A stretch of DNA of 57,334 bases, taken from Minisyncoccota bacterium. GTDB taxonomy: Bacteria > Patescibacteriota > Minisyncoccia > UBA6257 > GWB1-50-10. The DNA is taken from positions 1-57,334 of the forward strand of contig JAYRXE010000010.1 in the NCBI GenBank assembly GCA_041917695.1. Direction: 5' to 3'. The position numbers were made by a program, and so were the translations under genes. The notes under the pieces are model-generated. The model searched no databases, was not told the origin of the DNA, and saw only the letters and a list, made by a program, of their open reading frames with translations. Of the stretch, positions 2,331 to 41,075 are shown piece by piece. The stretch's first letter is position 1; each line of letters starts with the position of its first letter.

Positions 2331-2870
2331 TTATTGAATTTTTACCCTTCCTGACCATACTCGGGACAAGTTGATCCATTTATCCTTCTTCAGAATGTTC
2401 ATTGAATAAACCGTGCAGATTCGCCCCCAGAGAGGGCGTCGCCTCAAAGCTTCTTCTTTCGCATTTTCGATGGTGTCGAAGAGCCAAAACGCTTCATGAA
2501 CAAATGCCTGACCGTCATCGCCATTCATCCAGTAACACATCCGTTCATTCGGAGTCAGGTAGAACTCCACGTCTGTATCCGTCCTCAATTCCGGATCAAT
2601 CTCCTCGTCTGGCCCCTTCCATGAAACAATGAATTTCGTGAAATCCTCCTTTCTCAAGCGAAGATTTGCCTGAAGCCGATGATTGATTTTCACTCGCTGT
2701 AGCGCTGTAAATCGTTCGACCGGTTTCTCAACATCCTGAAATCCCACGGTGAATGGTCCTACAAAATTTCCCATACCTTTTTCTTCATCCTTCTTCGTCG
2801 GCTGATGTAACTGGGACTGAAGGTTGGCCGTTTTTAGGACCATAATTTGGCCAGCTATGTCACCTATCAC
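2331..2870 (-). CDS. hypothetical protein (179 aa)
   Basis: ORF track only. No recognisable motif. AT-rich relative to neighbours. Start uncertain. Confidence 0.5.
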   Translation of the reverse strand: MIGDIAGQIMVLKTANLQSQLHQPTKKDEEKGMGNFVGPFTVGFQDVEKPVERFTALQRVKINHRLQANLRLRKEDFTKFIVSWKGPDEEIDPELRTDTDVEFYLTPNERMCYWMNGDDGQAFVHEAFWLFDTIENAKEEALRRRPLWGRICTVYSMNILKKDKWINLSRVWSGRVKIQ

Positions 2871-3184
2871 TACTTCATTGCACGTTTATGAAGTTTGTTT
2901 TGACAATAGATTGGCCGAATGTTCATTTTGGGAAGCATGAATTGGCCGGTAATAACTGACCTGAACCCCAAAGTTGATCCACCTCAAATATTCGTTGAGG
3001 CTGGGTTTGGGGTTGAGATTCCGGATTGAAGGTTCAATCCATTGAACGCCATTGCATTCGATAGTCGCTGTGTAAACCGGAGCGCCGACGCGCCAATCAG
3101 CCCGGCGAGGCTTTGGGGAGAATGCCCGTCGCCAAGTCGTCGGTCATACCAACCGCCGGTCTCACGGGGGTTCAGGGGCGATGC

Positions 3185-3505
3185 CTACCGCATCAGAAAT
3201 TCATTCAGGCAAGCACGGAGGCGCTCTTTTGAAGGCCAGCCGCGCATCTGCTGACCGTCCTCCCGGTAGACCCGGCAGCCGTAGCCGATTCCGGCTTTCA
3301 CCGCGTCGGCCCCTTCCAGATCCACCCCATCAATTTGAATGGTCGGCGAACCCAGAAAGTTCAACCGCCGGGCTTCTTCCGGAGAAGTGACCGGAATCAT
3401 TTCAACCGGGGTCGTCAGCCCGGCCTCGGCCAAAACGGTTTTCAGGTTGTCCAATGCCGGTTGGTAGGAAGGACAGGTTTCAAAGTACAAGAGACTGATT
3501 TTCAT
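3185..3505 (-). CDS. small thioredoxin-fold protein (106 aa), last gene of the mer-like operon
   Basis: Internal Met MKISLLYFETCPSY of ORF 3185..3781. CPSY sits at the position of a Trx/Grx CxxC motif. It follows merT-merP on the same strand. The upstream part of the long ORF is low-complexity and probably not translated. Confidence 0.6.
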   Translation of the reverse strand: MKISLLYFETCPSYQPALDNLKTVLAEAGLTTPVEMIPVTSPEEARRLNFLGSPTIQIDGVDLEGADAVKAGIGYGCRVYREDGQQMRGWPSKERLRACLNEFLMR

Positions 3506-3656
3506 GATGATTTCGGTTCGGCCTTTGCCTTCGGAAGCTGGTTGCCCTGGGCGGCCAGAGGTACTCGGCCATGATCTTGGCGACCTTGAGTTCTCGTGGT
3601 CCGGATTATTTGCCAACAGGAGTGGCTGGATTTCGGAGGCACCCGAAGACAACCCC

Positions 3657-4370
3657 TCACGAAGGGGGCAAAAAGCAGCAGCCTGACTTTTCCCGCTTCC
3701 CGGTCCCGCCGCCCGCTGAGATTTTTGGCTGGTTTGGTACCCCCGGCTTGGCCGGAGCCGGTGGTTCGGCGGTGGTTTCATAGCCGGCCAGGCGAATGGC
3801 TTCGGCGAGCATTTTGTGGTTCACCTGCCTGGGGTCATAGGTTACGCGGGCTTGGGACGGCTCAAAACCGACTTCCGCGTGCAGCACGCCGGGAACCTTT
3901 CCAAGCGACTTCTTGACCGCGGCGGTACAGCCGGCACAGGTCATTCCGGTGATGGGCAGGGTGGCGGTTGCAACCGGGGCAGCCGGTGGAGTGGCCGAAC
4001 GCGCCGGGACGGCGGTGGGATTGGAACGCACCAACCCGTCCGCATAGTACGGGAACGCCCCGAATCCAATCACCAGCAGGGTTCCGATCCAGAGGACTGG
4101 TTTATTCCAACGTCCGACCCGTGCCGGGGGACAGTCACCTTCCGGGCAGGTTTTCGCCGCCGGCCGATAGACCAGGTAATAGCTGACCGCCAGCATGACC
4201 GCTGCCAGGGAAAGCAGAGAAGGTCTCCATTGCTCCAGGGCAGCCGCTGCCCCGAAACTGCCCAGGCCGAGCCCCACCGCCACCAGCGGTCCAAGGCAAC
4301 ACAGCGAAGCCGTCAAGGCCGTAAGAACCGAACCGGCGAGGGAGAGTTTTTGAGATGTCGTGTCTTTCAT
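3657..4370 (-). CDS. merT: mercuric ion transporter MerT fused to a MerP-like heavy-metal-associated domain
   Basis: First TM helix carries the CC pair (SLCCLGPLV). The loop carries a second Cys pair (CPEGDC). The C-terminal half carries the HMA motif GMTCAGC. The tail ends in GCC. Confidence 0.8.
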   Translation of the reverse strand: MKDTTSQKLSLAGSVLTALTASLCCLGPLVAVGLGLGSFGAAAALEQWRPSLLSLAAVMLAVSYYLVYRPAAKTCPEGDCPPARVGRWNKPVLWIGTLLVIGFGAFPYYADGLVRSNPTAVPARSATPPAAPVATATLPITGMTCAGCTAAVKKSLGKVPGVLHAEVGFEPSQARVTYDPRQVNHKMLAEAIRLAGYETTAEPPAPAKPGVPNQPKISAGGGTGKREKSGCCFLPPS

Positions 4371-4418
4371 GGGAATTACCTCACGACCACAGGGTAAACC
4401 CTGGTCTCAACTCCAGGG

Positions 4419-4862
4419 TCAAGCTTTTTTTCGGACAGCGGGAAAGGAATGGGGGATTTCCTCCAGGACCGGACAGCAATCGGCCTCATCCTGGGCCAAA
4501 ACCGCCCGACATTCGGCCAGAGAGTGGCTGAGGGTCCGGCGCAGGCGGGCAAGGGTTTCAATCCGTTGGTCAAGGTCGGCGATCCGGCCGGCCAGGACGG
4601 CCTGTACTTTCAGGCAGGCGGACCGGTCGTTTTTTTCAAAGCGCAGCAGTTCTCCGATTTGATCCAACGACAGGCCGAGTTCCCGGGCCTGCCGGATGAA
4701 CCGCAGCCGTTCAAGTGATTCCGGGGAATAGATCCGATACCCGGACGCCAGACGCCCGGGAGTGGGCAACAGGCCAATCTTTTCGTAGTAGCGAATGGTA
4801 TCAATCGTGACCTGGGCCTGGCCGGCCAGTTCTCCAATCAGAACACCGGTTCTGGAACTCAT
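4419..4862 (-). CDS. merR: MerR-family metal-responsive transcriptional regulator
   Basis: N-terminal HTH (IGELAGQAQVTIDTIRYYEKIGLL), a coiled-coil region, and Cys83/Cys118/Cys129-130. The Cys spacing is close to the Hg-binding cysteines of Tn501 MerR. Confidence 0.8.
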   Translation of the reverse strand: MSSRTGVLIGELAGQAQVTIDTIRYYEKIGLLPTPGRLASGYRIYSPESLERLRFIRQARELGLSLDQIGELLRFEKNDRSACLKVQAVLAGRIADLDQRIETLARLRRTLSHSLAECRAVLAQDEADCCPVLEEIPHSFPAVRKKA

Positions 4863-4874
4863 CTGCCCTACCCC

Positions 4875-5213
4875 TCATACTTTCCGCCGCGCAGTGAATC
4901 CGGCCATGGTCGCCCCGATAAAAAGCAAAAAACCCACGATCACCTGTGGTTGGAACAACCTGGTCAACGCGAGTCCAAAGAGGGCGGCAAAAAACAGGTT
5001 GGCAAGCTGGCAGACCCGGAAAACAACCGTATCCCGGCTGCCGACACGCAGGAGCACGAGATTCAGCAACCCGGCCAGAATAATGGCAACGCCTGAACCA
5101 AAAAACCACATCGCATTCAGGTTAAATTCACCGAAGTTAAACCATGTGAATGAAATATGGAGTAGTCCCAGCGCGAGAATGATGCCGGTGATAATCTGAT
5201 GAGCAAGTCTCAT
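4875..5213 (-). CDS. small membrane protein (112 aa), first gene of the mer-like operon
   Basis: Internal Met MRLAHQIITGIILALG of ORF 4875..5510. About four hydrophobic helices. GAGGG upstream of the ATG. Its stop lies 12 nt before the merR start. Confidence 0.55.
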   Translation of the reverse strand: MRLAHQIITGIILALGLLHISFTWFNFGEFNLNAMWFFGSGVAIILAGLLNLVLLRVGSRDTVVFRVCQLANLFFAALFGLALTRLFQPQVIVGFLLFIGATMAGFTARRKV

Positions 5214-5841
5214 ATTGCCCTCAAAAGGGAGAAACCCGCATATTTTTCCAACCTGGCCGCAAACCTTGACCCGGCGTTTAACTGCTGGCCCCAATTTGCT
5301 TTTCCTTGTCAGCCAGCATGCCTGAAACCAGCCTGAAACGAAATCAAGTTTGATCGTCAGGCCGGCTTGCCGCAAACCTACCCCTTTAAAGTGCGAGGTG
5401 AGCCACCTCACTTCAACCCCTTTTTCTGGATGGTGACTTCCAACAATTTCAAGACGGAAACTCCCTTTCGGAATTTCCGTATCGGCAGGATGCCGGTTGT
5501 TCCAGGTCATATTCTTAACCCAGGCCCGGTCGCTTTCTCACAATTTGCCACCACGAATGGGCGTGGGTCTTGCGACACCCTGCCATTCGGTGTCGTAACC
5601 AAACTCGAAACCAAGAAAAAGAGCATGCAGTCTATAGTCGACATTTGATTAGAGTGCGGATTGGATGTCGAATTATTTAAAAAGTTAAATCTCCTTTTAG
5701 ATCAGGAGGATAGAGGCGAAGCATCGGCCTTTCGCGTTCATTATAAATGAGTTCTTGAAAATTCTTTGTTTCAGTCCTATAGGATATAAGACATCAGATG
5801 ATAATTTTAATTGATTGAATTTTGAATCAATTTCAAATTGA

Positions 5842-8505
5842 ATGCGATTCATGAACGCTAAAAATACATCCGATTTATCCTGGTTGTCAGAAATGGCCCG
5901 GAAGGTTGTTGAGGAAATCCGGCGTTCCGGCCCCTCACGGGTCGTCAAAAGTGGACGAGGAAGCGTTTCCGGGCGATACCCCAGTCGCAAAATGGGCGTG
6001 GCGGTTCAATTCGAGAGTCACCGCAACGAGTTGGCCTACATCCTCGAACTTGAGCATGACCCCGATGTTCTCGAATACCACGATCAGCCGCCCTCGATTC
6101 CGCTCGGATACCTCTCCGCTACTGGAAAGCGGGTGTTGGCTGACCATACGGCTGATTTTTTCGTTGTCTCACGGGCCTTTACCGGATGGGTGGAATGCAA
6201 AACGGCGGCGCGACTGGAACGACTGTCAGTGGATCAGCCGAACCGCTTTCAATTGAGGTCTCTCGGTGAATGGCACTGTCCGCCCGGTGAGGCGCATGCC
6301 GCGCAACTCGGTCTCGGATACCGGGTTCGGTCCTCCGAGGAAACTGATCCGATACTCGCGAGCAACCTTCGCTTTCTGGACGACTATCTTCGCCCGGACG
6401 AATTGACTGTCCATCAAGTCCTGATTGATCTGGTTCTTTCGTTCGTCCTTGCCCGCCCCGGTCTCCCTCTCAGTGAAATCCTTTCGTTTCTTGCCGCGCG
6501 TGGATTACCGGCGGATGGACTCTACACGATGATTCTGACCGGGCACCTGTTCGTCGACCTGACGAAATCCCGGCTGACCGAACCGGAGCTGGTACCTCTT
6601 TTTCCCGATGCCAAAACCGCGGCCGGTTACCCGTCATCCGGAATCCAGCCCGGAGGCGTTCGGATTCCGCTGCTTCCAGGCGAGGTTATTCTTTGGGACG
6701 GTCGCCCGCTGACCCTGATCAACCGGGGAGAGCATTTAAACTGGTTTCGCCAGGCGGACGGCAATCTGGTAACCCTTTCCGATGACGACATCGTTGGACT
6801 GGTCGCCGGCGGCGGGATGGTTGTCACCCGCCGCGCTCAAACCGAAAGGGCGCGGGACGAAATTATTCGGGAACGACTGGCGACCGCCGATCCGGCAGCC
6901 CTTGGGGAAGCGAACCGGAGGCACAAGGCAATCTCCGACACCGCGTCCGAAATCCCGACGCGCACGCTTCGCCGCTGGCGGGAGTCGTACCGTCGAGCCG
7001 AGGAGAAAACCGGTATCGGATTTCTCGGCCTCATCCCAAATTTGTCCCGGAGTGGAAATCGGACGGCACGGCTTCCTCCGCGGTCGAGCGAGTTGGCCGG
7101 CGAATTCATTCGCGAGTATTTTGATAACCCTCGTCAGCCCAACCGACATTCTGTTTGGTCACGCCTCGTCGAAGCCTGCGCCCGTGAATCGCTCGTCGCG
7201 CCAACCTACAAAACCTTCCGGCGAATGCTGCTCAAACGTCCGGTTGTGGAGCAGACCGCCGCGCGTCGCGGACCACGGGCGGCCTATCAGGTTCAGGCCG
7301 CCGACACGATCCATCTCGATATCCAGGCCCCGCGTCATGGAGACCGGCCTTTTGAAATAGCCCACATCGACCATACCCGGCTGGACATCGCGCTGGTGTG
7401 TTCGGTCACGGGAAAGCCCCTTGGCCACCCCTGGATGACACTGCTCACCGACGCCTTTTCACGACGGTTTCTTGCCATCGGACTTACCTACGATCCGCCG
7501 AGCTACCGCGCCTGCATGGGAATTCTCAGGGAGTGCGTCCGACGATTTCAGCGTCTTCCGGGGATACTGATGACGGATGGCGGGAAGGAGTTTCAAAGCC
7601 AATATTACGAGGCCCTGCTCGCCGCCTACGAAGTAACCAAGAAAATCCGGCCTCCATCCGAATCCCGGTTCGGATCCATCTGTGAACGATTGTTCGGCAC
7701 GACCAATACCATGTTTATCCATACCCTGGTCGGAAATACCCAGCTCTCGGTCGAGAACCTGCGGTTGGCGACCGGGAAGTTCGCGCCGCGTCGCCAGGCA
7801 GCCTGGACACTCGAAGCCCTCCATCCCCTTTTGGAGAAATTCGCCTACGAGACCTATGACGGCATCGACCATCCGGCGCTCGGCCAAACCCCCGCCGAGG
7901 CGTTTACCCAGGGGATGGCAAATTTCGGACAACGTGAATTCCGAATCGTTCCCAACGACACGAATTTTCTCATGATGACCATGCCGACCACCCCCACCGG
8001 TCAGGCCACGGTGGTTCAGGGGCGGGGCATCAAGATCAACCGGATCTTCTATTGGTCCATTCAATTTGGACGACAGGAACTCCGCGGAAAGAAACTCAAG
8101 GTTCGTTACGACCCGGAGGATGCCGGTCGGGCATGGTCCTTCATTGATGGGCATTGGGTGGAATGCCGCAGTCAATATTATTCGGTCTTTCACCACCGTT
8201 CGGAGCGGGAGATTCAGCTCGCCACCGCTGAACTACGCAAGCGATTGGCTGCTCAGGACGGCAAGGTTCAGATCACGGCATTGAAGTTGGCCAATTTCCT
8301 TCGGGAGGTTGATGCCGCAGAGGTGGGTCTTCTCGCCGAACAAAGGAGCAAGGCTGCGGCCAACCTGAAACTTCGGACCACTCGAACCGAACCTCGCCAA
8401 AAAACTGAACAAACCGAACCGGCCTCAATCGGGGAAACCGCCAGGACTGGGCTTTCTCGCCGCATCGTTCCGAAAGAACTCGATATACTGGAACCGCTCG
8501 AATGA
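5842..8505 (+). CDS. TnsA-endonuclease / TnsB (Mu-type DDE) fusion transposase
   Basis: N-terminus shows the TnsA-like E...D...K pattern (FESHRNELAYILELEHDPDVLEY...HTADFFVV...GWVECK). The centre is an rve-type DDE core (HIDHTRLDI...LMTDGGKEFQS). A long Mu-transposase-like C-terminus follows. Confidence 0.8.
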   Translation: MRFMNAKNTSDLSWLSEMARKVVEEIRRSGPSRVVKSGRGSVSGRYPSRKMGVAVQFESHRNELAYILELEHDPDVLEYHDQPPSIPLGYLSATGKRVLADHTADFFVVSRAFTGWVECKTAARLERLSVDQPNRFQLRSLGEWHCPPGEAHAAQLGLGYRVRSSEETDPILASNLRFLDDYLRPDELTVHQVLIDLVLSFVLARPGLPLSEILSFLAARGLPADGLYTMILTGHLFVDLTKSRLTEPELVPLFPDAKTAAGYPSSGIQPGGVRIPLLPGEVILWDGRPLTLINRGEHLNWFRQADGNLVTLSDDDIVGLVAGGGMVVTRRAQTERARDEIIRERLATADPAALGEANRRHKAISDTASEIPTRTLRRWRESYRRAEEKTGIGFLGLIPNLSRSGNRTARLPPRSSELAGEFIREYFDNPRQPNRHSVWSRLVEACARESLVAPTYKTFRRMLLKRPVVEQTAARRGPRAAYQVQAADTIHLDIQAPRHGDRPFEIAHIDHTRLDIALVCSVTGKPLGHPWMTLLTDAFSRRFLAIGLTYDPPSYRACMGILRECVRRFQRLPGILMTDGGKEFQSQYYEALLAAYEVTKKIRPPSESRFGSICERLFGTTNTMFIHTLVGNTQLSVENLRLATGKFAPRRQAAWTLEALHPLLEKFAYETYDGIDHPALGQTPAEAFTQGMANFGQREFRIVPNDTNFLMMTMPTTPTGQATVVQGRGIKINRIFYWSIQFGRQELRGKKLKVRYDPEDAGRAWSFIDGHWVECRSQYYSVFHHRSEREIQLATAELRKRLAAQDGKVQITALKLANFLREVDAAEVGLLAEQRSKAAANLKLRTTRTEPRQKTEQTEPASIGETARTGLSRRIVPKELDILEPLE

Positions 8506-9752
8506 AACACCCCACCGCCCAGGTCGATCCCGAAGGGTTTCCTTTGAAGCTACTGAAGGCCCCGACGCCCGAAAAAGTCGATTACTTTGAACGCTACCTC
8601 GTGCGCCACCCGAATCTCGACGCAGTGGATCGGGCGATTTGGCGTGGAATCAACCACAAACCCGGTCCATCCCTTTATTTTGTAATCGGGCCAACCGGCG
8701 TCGGGAAAACCACGCTTCGCGAATCACTTCAACGCCGACTTGATCTGAACGCGCCAACCGTCTCCGCCGATGGCCGTCGCTGGCCGAACTATCTTTCCTG
8801 CGAAATCGCCGCGCCCGAATCCGGGTATATGAACTGGCGCGATTTTTACCGAAATCTCCTGGAACCCCTCGAAACGGAATTCCTCAAGGAACGACTGGGT
8901 GAAAAAGCCTCGAAGTTTCACTTGATCGGGCGTGCCGCCTACAGTCCGCGGGGATCGCTGGCCGACTATCGCGAAACGCTGATCGAGTGGTTTAAGGAAT
9001 CCAGGCCGCCAGCGCTTTTCATCGACGAGACGCAGCACCTGGTCAACCTGAGTTCGGGGCGACTCATGGAACATCTGGACGTTCTCAAATCCTTTGCCAC
9101 TCGGGCAAAAACGAAGATGGTGTTGTTCGGGACCTACCAACTTCTGCCGGGCCGCAACCTCAACGCCCAACTTTCCAGGCGAAGTGTTGACCTTCATTTC
9201 CCGCGCTACGGACTCTCCGACCGTGATACACGGGCGTTCGACAGCATCCTCTGGTCGTTTCAACGACACCTTCCGCTACGGTTCTGCGAAACACTGACCA
9301 ATCATGCCGACCTTCTTTACGCTCGAAGCGTCGGATGCGTCGGTATTCTCAAGAACTGGCTGACCTGGGCGCTTGAAATGGCGTGGGAGGAGAACCGGGG
9401 CAGACTGACGCTTGACCTGTTGAAAAGCGCCGCCCCAAACGTAAAGGTGAGTTCACGGATTGCCGACGAGGCCATCGAAGGCGAAAAACTCATTACGGAC
9501 GAGACCGGATCGGAGGAACACCTTTACGAGATTCTCGGCATGTCGGCACCGAAGAAGCAGATCGAAACACCGATGCACCCCATGCTTGAAACGGAAATCC
9601 CCAAAATGGAGAATCGAAAAGGCAACGCGAAAAAAAAGACGCGGTCTTCCGAACCCGACCTGAAAGTCCTCAAGACGGTCAGCCGCAAGCCTCGACTGCC
9701 TCACTCCATCGGGAAACGAAATCCAAAACGCGACCCAGTTGGAAAAGGGTAA
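8502..9752 (+). CDS. TnsC/TniB-family AAA+ transposition ATPase
   Basis: Walker A GPTGVGKT and Walker B LFIDETQH. The start overlaps the stop of the transposase (ATGA). Lys/Arg-rich C-terminal tail. Confidence 0.8.
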   Translation: MKHPTAQVDPEGFPLKLLKAPTPEKVDYFERYLVRHPNLDAVDRAIWRGINHKPGPSLYFVIGPTGVGKTTLRESLQRRLDLNAPTVSADGRRWPNYLSCEIAAPESGYMNWRDFYRNLLEPLETEFLKERLGEKASKFHLIGRAAYSPRGSLADYRETLIEWFKESRPPALFIDETQHLVNLSSGRLMEHLDVLKSFATRAKTKMVLFGTYQLLPGRNLNAQLSRRSVDLHFPRYGLSDRDTRAFDSILWSFQRHLPLRFCETLTNHADLLYARSVGCVGILKNWLTWALEMAWEENRGRLTLDLLKSAAPNVKVSSRIADEAIEGEKLITDETGSEEHLYEILGMSAPKKQIETPMHPMLETEIPKMENRKGNAKKKTRSSEPDLKVLKTVSRKPRLPHSIGKRNPKRDPVGKG

Positions 9753-9940
9753 AATCGAACGGCGAAAGCTCGGGGCCGAGCATTCAGGGTCGAAAGACTG
9801 GTTGTTACCGGCATTCCTGGGACCATAGTCTGGCCGCGGTGGCCAATCTACAGTCCCAGTTACAGCTGAAGCCTTCATTCCTAACAACATAAATGGCTTT
9901 ATCGGACACAACTTCTTTACGCAGATTGAAGTTCAGACAA

Positions 9941-12461: not shown

Positions 12462-14444
12462 TTATTTTTTTTCACCACTCGGGCCTTCCATCAGGCAACG
12501 CTGACATTCGGTACCAAAAACCTCGAACACCACCGCCGGAGCAACCCCTGAATCCATCTCCATTTGTCCAGGTGAGTGCCCGGGAAGGTAAAATTCTCCG
12601 GTCATGGCGTTACAGGAATTACAAACGTTCGCCGGATACTCTCTTTGTTGCGTTTGGCTGAAACAAGGCCTGATGATCGCTCCTTTTTCAATTGCAAAGG
12701 CCAATTCGGCTTCACTGAAATTTTCAGGAGACCCAATCACACCGCCTTGGACACAATCTCCGGTCATGGCGACCTTCATATCGGCATCGCAATTCCAGCA
12801 CTTTGAATCGACGACGAGGACCAGCCTCTGGGAATAAGGTTCACCACAATCACATCGTCCGAAGGGTGCCTCTTCTTTCTCCTTCTTCGATTTCCGACCT
12901 TTGGTTTTCTCTTTTCGCGCCTTTTTTCCTTTTCCCGTCGTCTCCGGCACGTCCACACCCACAGTTTCCTTTTCCTGAATTTCGGCCATGGCGTTTTCCT
13001 GTCGATCCTCCCCCGCGGCCGATGTGGCTTCGAGTTTCTGTTCTGGCACGGTCAGTCCATAGGCTTCGGCGATGGCTCGCAAAATGTCAATTTCGTCGGC
13101 CGGAATTCCCTTTTCAAATAATTGATCTATTTCCGCCTGGAGTTCCCGGATCGTCCGCCGTTCCCTTCCCTTATGGTCAACCGTTCTGGCCTCACCACCG
13201 ACCCGTTCTCGAAGAAAGTCCTCCCTGCCTCTTCGTGCCTGCTCGCAATCGAAGTTTCGGTAGAAAGCCCTTTCGGCAAGGCGTCTCAGGCGCTCACCGG
13301 CCAGATTTCGAACCGCCATCCACCGGACTTCAGGCCCCAAGCCGTTGTGGAAACGTTGGATTTCGTCCTTCGATTCTTCGAGCTCATGACCGAACTGACC
13401 TTCATTGAGGCTGGCGTCGAGATCGAGGTTCGGGTAGGTCCCGAATTCGGGTTTCATACCTTTCAAGAAAATGTCCACACCATTCGTTCCGATGATGCCC
13501 AGATTTTTCCGGATCAGTGCTCTCCTGTCATCGGTGATCGTTCCCTTTTCTGGCCTCAGTACAAACGGGACTTCCCCGGGTTTACGAGTGATGACTTGTG
13601 GCGGCTGCGAGGTATCCCCCTTCAGCCATGCTTCCAGATCGCTTTCCAACAGCAACCAGATCTGGCGCCCGAATTTCTCGGTTCGAGCGAGGACGGCCGG
13701 TAACTGGTAGTTCTTTCCATGCGCCCGCTGAGACAGGAGTATTCCGGTTCGAACATCTCGTCCCCGCGCCTTCACGGTTTTCATTTTTTCAATCGCCTGA
13801 AGGTCTTCATGCGGCGAAAATCGGCTCAACGCGGCGTAAAGGAGTTTTCCGTCTCCTTTTTTCATCAAATCCATCAGTTCGACCATCAATCGAACATCTT
13901 CCGCCGCTTCGGAACAGTCACCGACTTCAAGGCCGTTTTCACAAGCGACGGCCCGCAATGCGAAATTGATCGTGCCGTCCTCGCGAACCGGAAATTTCAG
14001 CACATCGGGGGCAAACACTTTGAAAAGGACCAGGATCGGCAACAAATCGCCACGACGACGCCCCTTCCCCTCCAAACCGGCCGGGTCCAGCAAGTTTCTG
14101 AAACACAGGAAACGGGAGACCTCGTGGTCGAGGCCGAAGGCGTTGAACCCGATTGCCGTGGTCCCGGGTCTGGAAAACTGCTGGTGAATCAGAAAAGCCG
14201 ATTCGTATTCGGTTACTCCGTCATTCCAAACGGCCGGGGGAGTCCCGAGACCCCGGAGAGATTCCAAGGTCGGGACAACGTCTCGTCTCAATCTGATCCT
14301 GAAGTCGAGTTCCTCCAGCAGCTGCCCTTCAAGACTCCGCCTTTGCGCGACGAATCGGACAGGCTGATCGAAAACCGGATTGAATCCGGTCAGGACAAAA
14401 TCAAAGAAAAGAAGTGACGCCTGATTCTCGTTTTGATCCCTCAT
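12462..14444 (-). CDS. exonuclease I (SbcB)-like protein with degenerate DEDDh motifs and a C-terminal Lys-rich linker plus multi-Cys zinc-ribbon domain
   Basis: Residues 1-470 are colinear with E. coli ExoI as I recall it. LLFFDFVLTG aligns with FLFHDYETFG, GFNAFGLDHEVSR with GYNNVRFDDEVTR, and AFYRNF with FNYRARNF. The Exo-I Glu reads Val and the Exo-III His reads Ser. The tail has GKGKKARKEKTKGRKSKKEKEE followed by CDCG...CWNC...CNSC...CQRC. Confidence 0.65.
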   Translation of the reverse strand: MRDQNENQASLLFFDFVLTGFNPVFDQPVRFVAQRRSLEGQLLEELDFRIRLRRDVVPTLESLRGLGTPPAVWNDGVTEYESAFLIHQQFSRPGTTAIGFNAFGLDHEVSRFLCFRNLLDPAGLEGKGRRRGDLLPILVLFKVFAPDVLKFPVREDGTINFALRAVACENGLEVGDCSEAAEDVRLMVELMDLMKKGDGKLLYAALSRFSPHEDLQAIEKMKTVKARGRDVRTGILLSQRAHGKNYQLPAVLARTEKFGRQIWLLLESDLEAWLKGDTSQPPQVITRKPGEVPFVLRPEKGTITDDRRALIRKNLGIIGTNGVDIFLKGMKPEFGTYPNLDLDASLNEGQFGHELEESKDEIQRFHNGLGPEVRWMAVRNLAGERLRRLAERAFYRNFDCEQARRGREDFLRERVGGEARTVDHKGRERRTIRELQAEIDQLFEKGIPADEIDILRAIAEAYGLTVPEQKLEATSAAGEDRQENAMAEIQEKETVGVDVPETTGKGKKARKEKTKGRKSKKEKEEAPFGRCDCGEPYSQRLVLVVDSKCWNCDADMKVAMTGDCVQGGVIGSPENFSEAELAFAIEKGAIIRPCFSQTQQREYPANVCNSCNAMTGEFYLPGHSPGQMEMDSGVAPAVVFEVFGTECQRCLMEGPSGEKK

Positions 14445-21000: not shown

Positions 21001-22916
21001 TTGACGGAAGTCTCTCGAACGTTCGCCTCGTTCGCATTCAATCCCTCAACCGCCAATCGTCGAACCTCTTCGTACCTTTCGACGAAGTCGGAAAGGGAAT
21101 AAAGCGCCAGAGTCCGCGTATCGGGACTCACGCCGACGCCGGCCAAGGGATAGATCCTTGTCAAGATCTCTTCGTCACTGCCCAAAGACTCCCAGACTTT
21201 TACCAGGACCTCTTTCTGGATTTGCGGGTCTTCATCAGGAGACAACCCAGCCAACACCGCACTGCGAACTTCACTCTTTTCGAAATTCCTCCACAAAATG
21301 TCCAATGCCTGAGATCTTTCCCAAGAATCGATCTTCCTGTCCGAGAACAATTCCAAGGCTTCCCCTAACTCCTGGGAGATCCCCGTATCCCTTCCGGTTT
21401 CTTCCACCTGTTCCTCGGACACAGGCACGCCTTCGCCCTTGGTCCCGTCCGATCCCAAAGGCACCCCGAATTCGTCCAATAGCTGGTCATTCGTAGGTGG
21501 CGGATTCGGTGACGTCAGAAAGAGGCAGTTCTCGAAAATCCGTTCGGTCGGTTCAAAGTCCGGACTGAATTCCATCGACCTGAATTGGCAGTCCCTGAAA
21601 AGCGCGCCTTCAAATGAAGCTCCCTTGAAGCTGCCGCTCGCGAACGTGGCGTTTCGAATCTCGAAGTTTTCCAGTCTCACCCCGGTGAGGTTGGAAAAAC
21701 TCACCGTGCCTTGTTCCATGCTCGCGTTCAAAAAGTCCGCATCGGTAAAGTCCGATTCATAGATCAGCGAGTTCGAAAATACTGACGACTCCAGGTTGGC
21801 TCCCCGGAACAACCCTTTCATGTTGGCCCCGCTGAAGGTCCCGCGTGAGAGATTCGAGCCGCTGAAATCGACACCGAAAAAGGAGGTGTCGATCCATTTC
21901 GAACTCATCAGGTTCGAATCATTCAGTCTCACGTTTCTGAGGGTCGCGCCTTTCAGGTTTGCGCCGTTGAGTCTCGCACCGGTTCCGGATACGTCCTTGA
22001 AGGTCGTTTTCGAAAGGTCCGCCAAGGAGAAGTCCGCTTTCGAAATATCCTGGTTCTCGATTTTCAGACCGGACAGATTCATCCGGGAGAACTCGCCTCG
22101 ACGACCTCCTTCACCATCGGAATCCAGCCAGTCCATGTGGGCGTTCAACATCCGGTCGAACCCGGACTGGGTCGGACCGATAAGGCTGGACAGCCTCCGT
22201 TCTTCGGTGTCGGGGTTTGCGACAATAAAAATATCCCGGTAGTCGGCGAGTCTTTCACCGTAACTCCGGGCTTCTTCCGGGGTGAACCCGGCTAACTTCA
22301 ACCTGATTCGAACCGGCAGTTCATCATCCCCTTGATTGAGCATTCCATCGGGTTGCGGCCGGTTATCCGGATTTCCGTATTTCAGAATCGTCCAGCTCGG
22401 GGCCTTTTCGATGAAGGCAACCGACGTAACCGGCTCAAGCCGTCCCGGGTTAAGGATGAAGACTTCCTTTTCCAGACATCCCGGCTCCTGGACGAGTTCC
22501 TGAATGACCCGATCCCGATCCTTATCCGAAACCAGTTTCGTCAGCGTTTTATCCAGTAGTTTCAGATCGCTTATTCCGAAAGGTCGAGGCCTTGCTTCCC
22601 CTACAACGGCTCCACTGAGCGTCAATCCGACCACGAAAAGCTCTTCGTCGAGATCGTCGTGCTGGACGACCTCGACATCTCCGAGACCGAAAAACTCGAT
22701 GGTTGTTTTTTGATACGGGAGCGAAAGTTTGACCGTCCCCTGTTCGGTTTTCCTGAAGTCCTCGCTGAACGCCAGTTGGAGCCGGCCATCGTTCGATCCC
22801 AAATGGGCGGGCTCCGCCAAATTGAGTGCCCTCGCAAGTCGGACAATCGACTCTCCTTGCTCATAGGTAACCAGTTCCGTGGTAGCGGGCATCTCGAAGC
22901 TCCTTCTCTCTGACAC
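18027..22916 (-). CDS. giant (1629 aa) pentapeptide-repeat / HEAT-like repeat protein
   Basis: Residues about 290-470 are pentapeptide repeats (ADFSLADLSKTTFKDVSGTGARLNGANLKGATLRNVRLNDSNL...). Three paralogous helical modules of about 200-290 aa follow, each beginning ...FSDR...W/ERS.ALD.LW.NF. A Gly/Pro linker and a roughly 330-aa unique C-terminal domain complete it. Confidence 0.85.
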   Translation of the reverse strand: MSERRSFEMPATTELVTYEQGESIVRLARALNLAEPAHLGSNDGRLQLAFSEDFRKTEQGTVKLSLPYQKTTIEFFGLGDVEVVQHDDLDEELFVVGLTLSGAVVGEARPRPFGISDLKLLDKTLTKLVSDKDRDRVIQELVQEPGCLEKEVFILNPGRLEPVTSVAFIEKAPSWTILKYGNPDNRPQPDGMLNQGDDELPVRIRLKLAGFTPEEARSYGERLADYRDIFIVANPDTEERRLSSLIGPTQSGFDRMLNAHMDWLDSDGEGGRRGEFSRMNLSGLKIENQDISKADFSLADLSKTTFKDVSGTGARLNGANLKGATLRNVRLNDSNLMSSKWIDTSFFGVDFSGSNLSRGTFSGANMKGLFRGANLESSVFSNSLIYESDFTDADFLNASMEQGTVSFSNLTGVRLENFEIRNATFASGSFKGASFEGALFRDCQFRSMEFSPDFEPTERIFENCLFLTSPNPPPTNDQLLDEFGVPLGSDGTKGEGVPVSEEQVEETGRDTGISQELGEALELFSDRKIDSWERSQALDILWRNFEKSEVRSAVLAGLSPDEDPQIQKEVLVKVWESLGSDEEILTRIYPLAGVGVSPDTRTLALYSLSDFVERYEEVRRLAVEGLNANEANVRETSVNVLTKLAGEAEIRTKLKALFSDESGVVRLDARKAVLGINPNSEAVKEAFEGVFQDEDEKILQWAEKYLQQRIEDPRPEMRAAGVELLGPRLGDEEIAKKIFLSYTDGEPSVREKVVEAFAASPENPLTRSVMRMALSDKDEGVRKTAMAVETGSAVKETEARQMETQERSEDRQGIPEAEQELLRNNLERFSDRTLNPEERSEALGQLLVNFGKEENRTAFLEGLENYPGVLDEIYSLAGEASDEKTRSFGIYLLSLVENDEKAKALVTAGLKAEEEIVRVVSAYSLNGLERNEGVRESLKDCISDESPFVRVEARKALLAASSTAEEVREALAGVFDDKSEIVSGWAENYLQQLLKGSGAEMRGVAMDLLGDRVGVEARKGSDIPTEVVENLRKFSDREFDPWARTKALDQLWPHFDKSDVRAAILEAMSPEEDPKVQKAVLLKVFDGLNEDQEILKRVYALAGDGVESEPRSLAIFSLSSVAEQDLEVKRLVIEGLKAEATEVREASVYTLKELAKNPENREKLVVCFSDEHPSVQLETRKAVLGNEPVPAEVKEALFGVFDTENEAVADWAEKFLLRNLDAGNAEMRTVAVELLGPRIGVEETGKKLFGSFSDEDPAVRQKVVEVFAASPRNPMSENILRMAVFDGDEEVRSTAATALENRRKVEEPEQGAGPLPRVDIDPDGGGTSGTPGSESGGPLGGAAGNLGGSTPMAASSTVPDRPFHASAPIPEIRATEPKPVQVVLPVMVDDQAARLADFDRALTALLESPRHYREALLMSVIEIGKGINPGKYKANELEQFAQTAINPETIAKLNGMVLTEAVYAQAMSSRAARESGRTALTETVVFNEMNRLQNEQKIEGVIELIEACGASVAYRSNQKVDVSVTRMTGFTKQDAGFVTALMDQGIDADLMMRVSHGMRHTDPSMLTPYVKTLDRIARDNLVMGDPNGEMTRSEAENLRAFMVEKGFVQPAVQTERSRNTSVEQYAMVM

Positions 22917-22966
22917 CGCCGGTCGTCAACTTGGACGACCGGTCCAGTCGAAACGCTGCGTTCGCT

Positions 22967-23359
22967 TCACGCCGCCTTCCCCAGGTTGAAGGGCACCGGC
23001 TGCGCGTTCAGATCGTTCGGAAATCCTTCGAACTCAATGCCGTCGAGCAGCTCGGAGATCTCGCTGCCCAGATCGATCACGGAGTGTTCTTCGCCGCTGG
23101 TTTTGAGATTGTCGGAGAAGAACGCCCCGAATTCGATTTCGAGGTTCTTTCCGTACTGTTCGTCGCGAACGACGCTTCCCGGGCTGACTTCCTGAATCAC
23201 GCTCGATTCGTGAACGATCACCGAGCGGCCACCCGTGGTGATCATCTGGTAGCGTCTGCCCACGCTTCCAGGAATGTCCGGAATGGCGACGATGCGTCCC
23301 TGCCCGTAGATGGTCGTGTTGACGATGGCCCCGATTTGGAATTGCTTCTTTTCGCTCAT
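22967..23359 (-). CDS. hypothetical protein (130 aa), first gene of the minus-strand operon
   Basis: ORF track. AAGGAG upstream of the ATG. Lies about 40 nt downstream of the predicted minus-strand sigma54 start site. Confidence 0.65.
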   Translation of the reverse strand: MSEKKQFQIGAIVNTTIYGQGRIVAIPDIPGSVGRRYQMITTGGRSVIVHESSVIQEVSPGSVVRDEQYGKNLEIEFGAFFSDNLKTSGEEHSVIDLGSEISELLDGIEFEGFPNDLNAQPVPFNLGKAA

Positions 23360-23410
23360 GGTTTTCTGCTCCTTTGCTTGGCTTTTAAAAGCGGACCTGC
23401 CAGACCTCTT

Positions 23411-23426
23411 GGCGAATTCCGTGCCA
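23411..23426 (-). promoter_or_regulatory. sigma54-type -24/-12 promoter (minus strand)
   Basis: Minus strand reads TGGCACGGAATTCGCC. GG and GC are at the canonical 10-nt spacing. The -12 element is TCGC rather than TTGC. Confidence 0.55.
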
Positions 23427-23502
23427 AAGTTCGATAAGAGCTTCGGAAATCCATAACTCCAACAAAATCAACAAAATGCCTTTTCTTGACGGTTTTTTTA
23501 AT

Positions 23503-23518
23503 TTCCGGAAATCAGGAA
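23503..23518. promoter_or_regulatory. 16-bp palindrome TTCCGGA-AA-TCAGGAA (putative enhancer-binding-protein site)
   Basis: 7-2-7 inverted repeat between the two divergent sigma54 promoters. The same architecture occurs at 26194, 26222, 35495 and 50891. Confidence 0.55.
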
Positions 23519-23642
23519 ACTTAAAAGTGATTCCTAAAATTAAGACTCTTACGGAGTTGTCGTTTTGCTTTCCCCAAATTTCCCGCCCTTGAAAATCAAT
23601 GACTTAGCCCAAAAAAAGAAATGCCCGCGAACGGCATTTCAT

Positions 23643-23658
23643 TGGCACGCATATTGCT
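23643..23658 (+). promoter_or_regulatory. sigma54-type -24/-12 promoter (plus strand)
   Basis: TGGCACGCATATTGCT matches TGGCACG-N4-TTGCW exactly. Confidence 0.65.
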
Positions 23659-23695
23659 TGATTCCGAGTACTTTCTCGGAAAGGGTTTCAACGGC

Positions 23696-25024
23696 ATGCA
23701 TGGAATCGAAGGGTTCGGCGAACAAAGAGGCAGACTGCTTGCGGTCCAAATGGAAGCCGAAGCTGCAACTCAACGCATGATCGATCACGAGAACAATCTC
23801 GGTTTTATCGAGATTGCGCTGGACAACCCGCAAGCTGCCGGGCTCAAGCCTCGCACCGGTCTACACACGGTCACCCTCCATGACCTGGTTTCCGCGCGTA
23901 GCGCGACCGAACGCCTCGTCGAGGAGGTAGAAGTAAATTTCAACTTCGCCGCCTTGAATACCTTCTACGAGATCGCGAGACAAAAGACGGTTCAGGCGGT
24001 CGGTGCTCAGGGTCGAGTACAGGATGTGCAGGCAGTCGTGTCCTACCTTAAAGACCCGGGTGCCGGGTTGAAGCAAACCCTCACGGGTGAAATTCTCAAA
24101 GGAACGGACAGACAGACGGCGGAAACCTTCGACAACGCCCAGAAGGTTCGACAGGGGCTCGGAATACTCAAGCAACTTGCCGCCAAGGACCCGGAAGCCG
24201 CGGCGTTACTCGACCGGTACAAACTTCAGACCTCCCTCGAACAGATGGTCCTCGAAGCGCATTCCCAAACCCTTCAGTCGCTCGCCAAACACGCATCCTC
24301 GGCCGAGATCAAAAGGGACGCACTGGAAGGGATCGTCGCCGATCACACCGCCCAGCTCACCGCATCCGGCACTCCCATTCCTAACGCGGTGTTCTCGGAT
24401 GAGGCGCTGAATGTGGCGCTTCAAAATGCCAGCGGCATTCGCTCTTCGACACTCATCGAGGAGTTCGGTCAAGTCCTTCGACAGACGCCCCTCACTCCGG
24501 AAGCGAAACAGATCGTCGTCAACCGGCTGTACGGCGCGACGGATTTTTTGCATTCAAGGGCCGCACACGAAACTCTTGTTTCAATGCAAACCCAGGACGC
24601 CGTGGACCGGATCGAGCGCGGTCAGATTCCGTCCGATCCCACCCTTTTCAGAACCCTCGTTGAAGTACCCGAAGGTCTCACGATCGAGGGCCGTGAACTT
24701 CAACAGTTCAGGGGGGTCGAAGGCGGACAGAAACAGGTCCAATTCGTTCTCGAACAACTCACTCGTAAGCACGAAGGCGTAAGCGTTGCGGAGATCCAGA
24801 ATGCCGCCCGGTTCGCCGCGGCACACGACACCGCCCAGACCGCGCGGGAAGTCGAAGTCATGACGAACGACCTTTCGCGCGAATGGAAGATCAGTCCGGA
24901 TCGCGCGTTGCTCACCGCGAGCGAGCGCGATTACCTCAAGGCTGTATCAATCGATCCGGCCGTCACCGCACCGGCCCAGGAAGATATCGCTCTTACGGCT
25001 GCTGAAGCCGCACTTACTCTTTGA
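23696..25024 (+). CDS. hypothetical alpha-helical protein (about 443 aa)
   Basis: ORF 23621..25024. The first ATG lies upstream of the sigma54 promoter, so the internal Met MHGIEG (23696) is the more likely start. Confidence 0.65.
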   Translation: MHGIEGFGEQRGRLLAVQMEAEAATQRMIDHENNLGFIEIALDNPQAAGLKPRTGLHTVTLHDLVSARSATERLVEEVEVNFNFAALNTFYEIARQKTVQAVGAQGRVQDVQAVVSYLKDPGAGLKQTLTGEILKGTDRQTAETFDNAQKVRQGLGILKQLAAKDPEAAALLDRYKLQTSLEQMVLEAHSQTLQSLAKHASSAEIKRDALEGIVADHTAQLTASGTPIPNAVFSDEALNVALQNASGIRSSTLIEEFGQVLRQTPLTPEAKQIVVNRLYGATDFLHSRAAHETLVSMQTQDAVDRIERGQIPSDPTLFRTLVEVPEGLTIEGRELQQFRGVEGGQKQVQFVLEQLTRKHEGVSVAEIQNAARFAAAHDTAQTAREVEVMTNDLSREWKISPDRALLTASERDYLKAVSIDPAVTAPAQEDIALTAAEAALTL

Positions 25025-35844: not shown

Positions 35845-37119
35845 ATGATGTTGAAAAAAAAGAACGGTCCAAAATTTGCCTACGGATATCTGCTCCTCCT
35901 GCCTTTTGCGTTTTCGATATTTTTCGCAGGTGGATCATCGCCGAAGGTCAGAGCTGAAAGTCCCGGCCAGTACACAACGTCCGCCGAATTCTTCACGGAT
36001 GTCACCAACTGGTGTACGACCGAGGTTCGCGGAACCAGACGCTGGAAGCTCGAAGCCACCTACAACCCCACGGATCGGACACTTTCCGGGAAAGTGGTTT
36101 TCACCAACACCGGGGATCAGGCAAGCGGCCAGAACAAAGCGTATCTCTACGTCGATTCGTTCGATATTTTCGACATCGACGGGAACCAGATCGCCACGCT
36201 CCCCTGTTCGCTTCTCAACCAGCCTTCCGGAGACTACTCGTTTGCGACCATCACCCTTCCGACCGACCCCTACCTGGTCAAGGTGTCGGGGCAGAACTAT
36301 CGTTCCCCCGGAATTTGTCCTCCCGGTCCGTTTCAAGACGATTACTCGCTGCCGTTCAACCAGCTGGCCACCAATCCCTATTTCAACGTCCCCTGCCCTG
36401 TAATCACGACCTTCCAGATCACGCCGAACCCGGTTCCCCCGGGCGGAAGCGTGACGGCGGACTGGGTCGTCGAGAACCTTTTCATCGGAAGGAAGATCAG
36501 AATTACCGGTCCCGGCTTTCCCTCGGGCGACCGCACCGACGCAACCGGAAGTCAGGTCTTCACCGCGCCGGCCACCATCGGGAACTACACATACACGCTT
36601 TCGATCATCGAGCGGGACGGGACGACCCAGGTTGCCTGCGTCACGCCTCGAACGGTGACGCTCGTCGTCGGTGGGGCCAATTTCTTCTGGCTGGTCAAAC
36701 GCCAGCAAATTGCGGGAGAGCTTTATCCGCCGGGAAGTCCGCCTTTTTATGTCGAGCCGCCCGTAGGTACCGCTCCCCCTGGATCGAACGATTCCGGTTC
36801 CTTCAGGCGGGTTCCTGAAACGGGCTTCTTTCAGGCAACTTCATTCTCTCAAGCCCAAACCATGTTCATTACAGAGAGGAATACAGCCAGAATCCAGATG
36901 ATTGCTTCGGATCAATTCTTCCCTGGTGGTGCTCGAAGTCCAAATTATCTTGCTGCCCGAAATGATTTCCTTGTTGGCGTCAATCAACTTTATCCAAATG
37001 CCGTCAACAGATTTAATTCACAGAATCCCGGGTATGCCGGTCCGATTCTTGGAGTCGGGCTGCCTGAAAATCTCTCAACCCCCAAGCGGAATGAGCGAGT
37101 AGACCCATATGAAAATTAG
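35845..37119 (+). CDS. secreted hypothetical protein (424 aa)
   Basis: ORF track. Signal peptide. GAGGG upstream of the ATG. Confidence 0.7.
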   Translation: MMLKKKNGPKFAYGYLLLLPFAFSIFFAGGSSPKVRAESPGQYTTSAEFFTDVTNWCTTEVRGTRRWKLEATYNPTDRTLSGKVVFTNTGDQASGQNKAYLYVDSFDIFDIDGNQIATLPCSLLNQPSGDYSFATITLPTDPYLVKVSGQNYRSPGICPPGPFQDDYSLPFNQLATNPYFNVPCPVITTFQITPNPVPPGGSVTADWVVENLFIGRKIRITGPGFPSGDRTDATGSQVFTAPATIGNYTYTLSIIERDGTTQVACVTPRTVTLVVGGANFFWLVKRQQIAGELYPPGSPPFYVEPPVGTAPPGSNDSGSFRRVPETGFFQATSFSQAQTMFITERNTARIQMIASDQFFPGGARSPNYLAARNDFLVGVNQLYPNAVNRFNSQNPGYAGPILGVGLPENLSTPKRNERVDPYEN

Positions 37120-38047
37120 AAAAATAGAAGCCGGCTATTCGCTGATCGAGCTGATAATTGCCGTCACCATTTTCACGATTGTCATCGTGGGATTCGGTGC
37201 CGCGTTCGGGGTTTCCCTGAGAACCGCGAGATTCCAGCAAGGGCAAGCGCTTCTCAACACCGACCTTCAGCGGGCATCCAAACTCCTCGACACCGACGTT
37301 CGCCAGACGGGGTTTCTTCTGGCAGCCGGTTCCAACAACACCCTTCCGCTCTTCGTCAGGGACGGACACCCGGTCGCCGCGGTCGAAGTCGCTGACGACG
37401 GCAAAACCCTTCGTTGCTACCGGATCGGCGACGAATCGGGCGGTCGCGCGGTCGAAGGCATCACACCCGCCGGCGCGATCACTTCCGGTACAACCGAATT
37501 CACCGTGGCCGGAAACATCTCGACACTGACCGGCCGGATCGGGTCTTCGAGGGCCTTCCTTTTCGTTTCCGAGGGCCTCGGACGCCAGGGGCTGCTCTTC
37601 ATCACAAGTTCGGCTCCAACCGTTGACTCGGTGAATCCCAATCTGGTTCACCTTCGGGGCGCATTCTCATCCGGCCCCTGTCTGAATGTCGGCGATATCG
37701 GAACCGCACCCGTCGATTACAGAGGAATGCTCGCGATACCTGTCAGTTCATATCTCGAGTATCGGGTCCGGGATGAAGGCCTCGTGCGTTCCGAATATCC
37801 CGGGACCCTCAACCCTTGCGGAAGCACTGCAACTTCAACGGATAAACTCCTGATCCAGACCACCCATTTCGCCGATCTTCGTTTCGGCTACCTCCGTTCG
37901 AACGGCGACAACGCGGTCACTGTAGCCGACTCCGATTTCCCATCGATTCGAGGCGTCATGCTCGTCGTCAAACGGCGAAACACCGGTACCGCGAATAACG
38001 AATTCGTCAGCCATTATGTCCCGTTCATCATGAACAGCGAGTGGTGA
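37109..38047 (+). CDS. prepilin-type N-terminal cleavage/methylation-domain protein (pseudopilin-like, 312 aa)
   Basis: MKIRKIEAG/YSLIELIIAVTIFTIV: Gly before the cleavage site and Glu at +5, followed by a hydrophobic helix. Confidence 0.75.
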   Translation: MKIRKIEAGYSLIELIIAVTIFTIVIVGFGAAFGVSLRTARFQQGQALLNTDLQRASKLLDTDVRQTGFLLAAGSNNTLPLFVRDGHPVAAVEVADDGKTLRCYRIGDESGGRAVEGITPAGAITSGTTEFTVAGNISTLTGRIGSSRAFLFVSEGLGRQGLLFITSSAPTVDSVNPNLVHLRGAFSSGPCLNVGDIGTAPVDYRGMLAIPVSSYLEYRVRDEGLVRSEYPGTLNPCGSTATSTDKLLIQTTHFADLRFGYLRSNGDNAVTVADSDFPSIRGVMLVVKRRNTGTANNEFVSHYVPFIMNSEW

Positions 38048-38050
38048 ATC

Positions 38051-38482
38051 ATGCCGAAGAACCGTCGACAAAACTTTTGCCGGAATCAGAACGGAACGCT
38101 CTACGTCGAGCTGCTGATCGCCATCGCCCTTCTGGCGGTTTTCGGTGCGGTCGTGATGTCCTACATCACCCAGCACCAACGACTTCAACAATTGGCTCGA
38201 GTTCGGGACACCGCGAATTACACCGCCAATGCAGCCGCGCGCCTTTACAAGGTCAATTTTTGTCCTTCCGGAACCGTCGTTCCGGGAAACGGAACGGTCG
38301 TCGTATCCGAACAGGGAATCAAGCTTTTCGTTCTTCCCGATACCCCCGCGGCGGGAACCCCCGGCCAGACGTTTTTGTTCCGGGCTACTTCAAGTCGAAC
38401 TCCAACCGGGGGAAATGCCCTGAGCTTCGAACTCGTTGACCAGTTCGGAAAGTCCATCACCGTGAAGATCATCCCGATCTGA
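38051..38482 (+). CDS. prepilin-type N-terminal-domain protein (143 aa)
   Basis: ...NQNG/TLYVELLIAIALLAVFG: Gly, Glu at +5, then a hydrophobic helix. Confidence 0.65.
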   Translation: MPKNRRQNFCRNQNGTLYVELLIAIALLAVFGAVVMSYITQHQRLQQLARVRDTANYTANAAARLYKVNFCPSGTVVPGNGTVVVSEQGIKLFVLPDTPAAGTPGQTFLFRATSSRTPTGGNALSFELVDQFGKSITVKIIPI

Positions 38483-38525
38483 AACCCGAATCCGATTCAA
38501 GTACGTAAAGGAAGGTGTTCAAACC

Positions 38526-39407: not shown

Positions 39408-39455
39408 CAAAGGGCCGGGTTTTCCCGGCCCTTTCCCTCAACAAGTTAAACGGAA

Positions 39456-40979: not shown

Positions 40980-41075
40980 ATACGCCTCACCGAAATTCAT
41001 ATTCACCCGTTGCTATCTTTTCCGAAAAAATCGTCCGAACGGTTTTCTTGTTTTTCAAAAATCACCCAAATCAAA

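Follow-up and report, generated by a model that had tools for sequence, protein, structure and literature searches.

The stretch of DNA analysed here (hereafter the window) is the 57,334-nucleotide contig JAYRXE010000010.1 of a Minisyncoccota bacterium, and it makes up the entire contig C10 of a 1.24-Mb, 49-contig metagenome-assembled genome (MAG). We propose, with a probability of about 0.8, that positions 2806-9864 of the window are a Tn7-like transposon of the fused-TnsAB type which is complete and autonomous and has been active recently, that the absence of a TniQ target selector is normal for its lineage, and that its TnsC protein would capture target DNA directly.

Tn7-family transposons show tight target control via selectors of the TniQ/TnsD type, and are being engineered as DNA-insertion tools; natural elements without TniQ have, to our knowledge, been described only briefly, for the cyanobacterial branch of Tn5541. 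New here is a TniQ-less element which is demonstrably mobile (being present at two sites, each with its own 5-bp duplication), which carries a metal-handling cargo and which lies outside the cyanobacteria. A well-bounded element of 7 kb, together with relatives of 4.2 kb, provides material for asking whether TnsAB and TnsC suffice for transposition, and what guides them.

The element, its ends and its second copy

The two transposition genes are both on the plus strand and were assigned from Pfam matches, alignment and homology to structures in the PDB. The first, tnsAB (5842-8505), encodes an 887-amino acid (aa) fusion of a TnsA endonuclease with a TnsB DDE transposase; the second, tnsC (8502-9752), encodes a 416-aa AAA+ target-DNA adaptor, and the two reading frames overlap by ATGA. 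A preliminary description of this DNA, made from the letters and open reading frames (ORFs), had already seen a TnsA-TnsB fusion coupled to a TniB/TnsC-type ATPase, and our results bear this out for both proteins. The 887-aa protein matches the Pfam domains TnsA_N (weakly), rve and Mu-transpos_C, with its TnsA-type matches below cut-off in both Pfam and NCBIfam, and its residues 15-839 align with the fused TnsAB of PmcCAST (PDB 9bw1; E 8e-218). In a 29-sequence alignment of homologues, the TnsA nuclease residues E63, D105 and K120 and the TnsB DDE residues D510, D579 and E615 are all invariant; by its position, D105 would correspond to D106 of McCAST, mutation of which yields cointegrates. TnsC has Pfam AAA_22/TniB matches, is homologous over residues 11-350 to the TnsC of PmcCAST (PDB 8fcu; E 4e-63) and conserves a Walker A motif, GPTGVGKT, and the acidic Walker B pair (Asp-Glu, 175-176). 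It also has a lengthened basic linker, rich in lysine and proline, ahead of a conserved C-terminal tail; this expansion occurs at one and the same place in the clade to which the window element belongs (25-35 aa) and in Tn5541-like TnsC proteins (about 100 aa).

The ends of the element, which the preliminary description had been unable to define, were located by scanning for inverted matches between the sequence to the left of tnsAB and that to the right of tnsC. This gave a single clear pair, in which TGTAACTGGGACTG..., starting at 2806, is matched at 22 of 24 positions by its inverse at 9841-9864, finishing at 9864. The termini are TGT...ACA, and immediately outside both of them stands a perfect 5-bp direct duplication, GCTGA (2801-2805 and 9865-9869), giving an element of 7,059 bp. 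The right end (2806-2950, plus strand) combines the TGT terminus with four TnsB-type sites of 16 bp, at about 2814, 2837, 2901 and 2931, whose spacing of 23/64/30 bp is identical in the relatives L008 and L011. The left end (9817-9864, minus strand) has its terminal site at 9841-9856, an inverted inner site at 9820-9835 and ACA at 9862-9864. Sites were searched for with the consensus GGACNNTAGATTGGCC, the fourth right-end site being identified by eye; five matches with at most two mismatches occur in the window and all five are inside the two ends. Thus the duplication and the inverted downstream sites, which the preliminary description had proposed looking for, do exist; the right-end repeats are at 2806-2950 and not, as it had suggested, at 5.5-5.85 kb. 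A right end just upstream of tnsAB (TGTCGTAACC at 5591) was also considered, and 2806 was preferred because the former has no partner and no repeated sites. Excising the element in silico leaves an intergenic spacer some 30 bp upstream of a 148-aa ORF.

As the left end is 112 bp past the stop codon of tnsC, there is no room for a tniQ gene between them. The ORF-free stretch of about 700 bp after tnsC, to which attention had been drawn earlier, is indeed present, but with the left end at 9864 it is flanking DNA and does not belong to the element.

The boundaries are confirmed independently by a second insertion site. Contig L180, from another metagenome (run SRR27292921), is 99.97% identical to window positions 2806-9864 along exactly 7,059 bp, with identity beginning precisely at 2806. 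It places the element in other surroundings, with UmuDC-type genes on one side and a tyrosine integrase on the other, flanked by its own perfect duplication, ATATG. L179 and L186 share the left junction of this second site, and the identity of L179, L180 and L186 to the window stops exactly at 9864; L181 and L182 reproduce the window's own insertion context. Besides SRR27292921, runs SRR18055304, SRR18055311, SRR26835159 and SRR10663364 contain the element. Because near-identical copies of the same 7,059 bp are found at two sites with different duplications, the element has transposed recently.

Absence of TniQ in the element and its relatives

No TniQ/TnsD-family gene was found between 2806 and 9864 using Pfam, tblastn or a family-specific profile hidden Markov model (HMM), and Pfam and NCBIfam scans of the same interval found neither cas effector genes nor a CRISPR array. 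The TniQ profile search which had been proposed for the contig was extended to the whole 1.24-Mb genome, where PF06527 (TniQ) gave no match at E<=1 and tblastn with the TniQ of a relative gave none either. The family HMM, made from some 90 members and applied unfiltered to all six frames of the genome, gave two marginal matches. That at window 46537-47379 is a CI/S24 repressor, with helix-turn-helix similarity only, and that at C33:64826-65377 (E 1e-4, 21 bits) probably reflects noise of a similar sort. The earlier statement that no TniQ/TnsD/TnsE-type selector accompanies the genes therefore holds, with no TniQ found in either the element or the assembled genome.

Other places for a selector were considered and rejected. 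A decayed tniQ in the 700 bp after tnsC gave no tblastn or HMM signal, and that stretch is outside the element. A 516-aa gene at 39456-41006, whose 59%-identical paralogue comes after tnsC on contig C33, was examined as a displaced selector or inversion product; the C33 paralogue is outside the mapped left end of the element on that contig, and the gene is part of a paralogous pseudopilin block with weak Reprolysin matches only. The preliminary description had also suggested that a selector might be encoded elsewhere in the cargo, but this is very unlikely, as cargo varies among clade members and some carry none. An ORF of 211 aa within the cargo is absent from other clade members and so is not a conserved selector.

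The fused TnsAB family, to which Tn5469, Tn5541 and the cores of type I-B2 and I-D CRISPR-associated transposons belong, is large: over 1,250 homologues, 830-940 aa long, were found at 43-50% identity. Its members come from Chloroflexota, Acidobacteriota, Cyanobacteriota and further phyla, and most commonly take the form of a cargo-less tnsAB-tnsC-tniQ element of about 5.5 kb with TGTGACTT-type ends. TniQ follows tnsC in 113 of 130 family loci having at least 1.5 kb downstream of tnsC, a sample that is biased by the choice of loci fetched; of the 17 exceptions, 15 belong to three TniQ-less lineages, the others being an orphan TnsC (L006) and a TnsC-TniQ fusion (L080). The closest relatives of the window element are all without TniQ, and in all of them except L008 the left end directly follows tnsC. 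They include a paralogue in the same genome (C33:12378-17176; 4,799 bp, 48% identical, duplication AAGTT) with a methyltransferase cargo and no TniQ; L008, with intact ends and only two small cargo genes after tnsC; L011 and L172, in both of which the left end comes directly after tnsC, the TnsC of L172 being 68% identical to that of the window; L173, a contig which starts and stops exactly at the termini of a 4,193-bp tnsAB+tnsC element; and L183/L184, a 4,182-bp element with the duplication TTTGG, adjoining a relaxase gene in L183. Since this layout is common to the clade, we take the absence of TniQ to be the normal state of the lineage rather than decay.

On TnsAB trees the window clade is supported by a Shimodaira-Hasegawa-like approximate likelihood ratio (SH-aLRT) value of 100 and is separate from Tn5541-like elements; TniQ-bearing lineages separate it from L091 and L177, two Tn5541-like loci from cyanobacterial plasmids whose TnsC proteins are 488-492 aa long. 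A third TniQ-less set, also apart from the Tn5541-like sequences on the tree, consists of a Pleurocapsales element of 4,116 bp with tnsAB and tnsC only and the duplication AATCT (L072 9748-13863; L079, which is the whole 4,116-bp contig; and L069). TniQ is thus absent from at least three separate lineages of the fused-TnsAB family, and its absence may have at least two or three origins on the TnsAB tree; the independence of the losses depends on the root of the tree. A metagenome scan with a TnsC profile of the clade returned mostly TniQ-bearing relatives, at no more than 45% identity.

The window element is therefore most aptly placed within the known fused-TnsAB Tn7-like family, as a new branch without TniQ whose published analogue is Tn5541; the novelty implied in the preliminary description was overstated. 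Tn5541 (Schaefer & Kahn 1998) is already discussed as a TnsAB+TnsC element without TniQ in PMC9881144 (Hsieh & Peters), which describes its branch as having a C-terminal extension of TnsC and as seen only on plasmids. Both it and the window element combine a TnsAB fusion and TnsC with no TniQ, and both have a TnsC linker lengthened before the conserved C-terminal tail; fetched examples of both are on plasmid or mobile-element DNA, with relaxase neighbours in L091 on the Tn5541-like side and L183 in the window clade. They differ in that the window TnsAB is only about 41% identical and forms a separate clade, while Tn5541-like sequences nest among cyanobacterial elements; in the size of the TnsC extension (25-35 aa against about 100 aa); in the cargo which the window element carries between its right end and tnsAB; and in a host that is non-cyanobacterial, although the true host of the contig is uncertain. 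Minimal elements of the Tn5469 type (tnsAB-tnsC-tniQ, about 5.5 kb, no cargo) share with the window element 45-50% TnsAB identity, TGT/ACA ends, the four-plus-two arrangement of end sites and the 5-bp duplication, but encode, in the interval from tnsC to the left end, a single TniQ of about 460-520 aa which the window element lacks. The closest solved structures to the window TnsAB and TnsC are those of PmcCAST (PDB 9bw1/8fcu/8v32), a type I-B2 CRISPR-associated transposon (CAST) from a Peltigera membranacea cyanobiont, in which TnsAB uses its C-terminal tail to bind the ring formed by TnsC (PMC11915506). PmcCAST targets via TniQ, TnsD and Cascade, whereas the window element is without cas genes, array, TniQ or TnsD. 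The likely practical outcome of our finding is a modest extension of known biology and no new principle.

Target choice

We suggest that TnsAB would carry out cut-and-paste transposition of the Tn7 type, as the nuclease and DDE residues are kept and the element has cognate ends and 5-bp duplications, and that TnsC would bind target DNA directly, without an adaptor. Direct capture by TnsC would be the simplest targeting model. Gain-of-function mutants of Tn7 TnsABC, TnsB with TnsC of type V-K CASTs, and MuA with MuB of phage Mu all transpose without a dedicated selector. As a working analogy, adaptor-free capture in the window element might resemble the Tn7 mutants, the TniQ-independent V-K route or MuB, in that a transposase and an AAA+ DNA-binding regulator choose targets unaided; however, in Tn7 and the CASTs the selector-free route is a mutant or side pathway, and in the window element it would be natural and the only pathway. 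The lengthened lysine/proline-rich TnsC linker of both TniQ-less lineages may compensate for the missing adaptor. Insertions may favour mobile-element DNA: the neighbourhoods that could be read (those of the window, site 2, L183 and C33) hold mobile-element or defence genes. They may also favour a short motif some 34 bp beyond the left end. Such a motif is tentatively recognised in the window as TTTATCGGACACAA (9898-9911), 34 bp outside the left end, which matches at 10 of 14 positions the ATTATCAGACGTAA found 33-35 bp outside the left end at both site 2 (L180, about 14048-14061) and the L172 site (1946-1959). Shuffling gave probabilities of about 1e-5 for the sharing of ATTATCAGACGTAA and 0.005 for the 10/14 match, for a motif noticed post hoc at three sites of two related elements.

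Several points weigh against our proposal. That TnsAB and TnsC would be sufficient is a prediction from sequence, and a motif at a fixed distance would be unexpected if TnsC bound DNA purely non-specifically. The TnsC linker is low-complexity sequence for which we only infer a role in DNA binding, and the C33 TnsC has the expanded linker yet is shorter elsewhere (388 aa overall). The ends of L008 and L011 are intact but lack matching duplications, while tnsAB is split in L011 and in L183/L184, some members of the clade being in decay. Finally, the MAG is fragmented, and searches of 40 close-relative genomes and of 400 genomes from the phylum turned up no TnsAB/TnsC relatives; the actual host may thus be a different one, and could supply a factor.

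The motif itself could point to another explanation, in which the element uses its own transposase but an unrecognised sequence-specific factor (a host DNA-binding protein or a new function of TnsAB/TnsC) reads the motif some 34 bp beyond the left end, recruiting TnsC to it. The sharing of ATTATCAGACGTAA by site 2 and L172 at the same offset as the 10/14 match of site 1 favours this, as does a GGACGTA in the L183 flank, though this is at a different offset. However, the flanks of C33, L008 and L011 have no convincing motif, and the motif is on the left-end side, whereas TnsD-type selectors of Tn7 act on the right-end side. The members of the clade share no additional gene, and a search of the window and flanks for Rfam families gave none; an element-encoded guide matching the flanks was considered and rejected, there being one 11-mer match against 1.2 expected by chance. 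With the motif known from three sites only and recognised after the fact, we regard such a factor as rather unlikely. We are equally doubtful of the broader idea that this is a natural two-protein Tn7-type system which is nevertheless site-selective, TnsC/TnsAB or a recruited host protein reading a motif of about 14 bp and placing the left end 33-35 bp from it; were it true, the Tn7 family would have a new way of selecting its targets, and a very compact one.

The element might instead borrow TniQ in trans from the TniQ-bearing tnsAB-tnsC-tniQ relatives of about 5.5 kb, if these shared its cells. Such relatives are abundant in metagenomes and the MAG is fragmented, but it is 98% complete and holds two elements of the TniQ-less kind with no TniQ; furthermore the window TnsC is just 36-38% identical to the TnsC of TniQ-bearing relatives, making cross-talk unlikely, and layouts without TniQ are seen repeatedly, in at least three lineages, and include minimal elements present in multiple copies. 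Borrowing is thus highly improbable. We give even less credence, indeed almost none, to the suggestion in the preliminary description that the element is decayed, or that its genes are a fragment of a rearranged tnsAB-tnsC-tniQ element. Most family members do have tniQ after tnsC; in the window, however, the element retains its two ends, its duplication, its catalytic residues and two unbroken reading frames, and the 99.97%-identical copy stands elsewhere with a duplication of its own. We therefore retain, as our preferred reading, an intact TniQ-less transposon whose TnsC would capture its target unaided.

Cargo, replicon and further observations

The cargo lies between the right end and tnsAB, with all of its genes on the minus strand. 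It comprises a DF-family (seleno)protein-like gene (3185-3505; NCBIfam NF049942, E 8e-28), 106 aa as called in relatives' contigs (L181); a MerT-MerP (HMA) fusion metal transporter (3657-4370; Pfam MerT and HMA, with NCBIfam MerTP_fusion below cut-off); a MerR-family metal-responsive regulator (4419-4862; Pfam MerR_1 and MerR-DNA-bind, with NCBIfam MerR/ZntR/CadR all below their cut-offs); and the 211-aa ORF mentioned above (4875-5510; 112 aa in the calls of some contigs), which has no Pfam or NCBIfam match. ParA and ParB genes are found 5.4 kb from the element on contig C10.

The MAG, at 1.24 Mb, is roughly double the size of related genomes, those of the same genus and family being 0.5-0.8 Mb. 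The 680-kb contig C37 may be the chromosome, and C10, C15, C33, C35 and C40 may be extrachromosomal or mis-binned. These five contigs carry Tn7-like elements, ParAB, TnpB, Cas12b and many paralogous blocks, and C10 closes with 141 bp that recur without change at the ends of C35 and C39. A block of five genes is duplicated between window 35845-41006 and C33:6529-11779 at 59-66% protein identity; its contents include a 424-aa protein, an N_methyl pseudopilin, a 293-aa protein and the 516-aa protein with weak Reprolysin-like matches. Contig C40 (21933-26202; L006 9934-14203) has a third, orphan TnsC-like ATPase of 371 aa with no TnsAB partner, preceded by a 594-aa protein which resembles GHKL/HATPase_c_3 ATPases (ESM Atlas) and followed by a TnpB gene.

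Some of the relatives have features of their own. The C33 element is inserted exactly inside one CRISPR repeat, with its 5-bp duplication, here read as AACTT, in mid-repeat; the array (C33:12288-21154 and 21329-24991; L004, L005) has at least 53 repeats of 36 nt with a period of 70-75 and adjoins a 1,220-aa Cas12b/C2c1-like gene, both gene and array being outside the ends of the element. In L174-L176 (contigs of ENA PRJEB13142), a relative with separate TnsA and TnsB pieces is interrupted by another transposase gene; here a 470-aa protein without a Pfam match stands after tnsC in the position of tniQ, and may be a divergent selector. The fusion in L080 (12529-15570), from an Acidobacteriaceae MAG, is a 1,013-aa ORF matching both the TnsC and TniQ profiles, and appears to be a natural TnsC-TniQ fusion.

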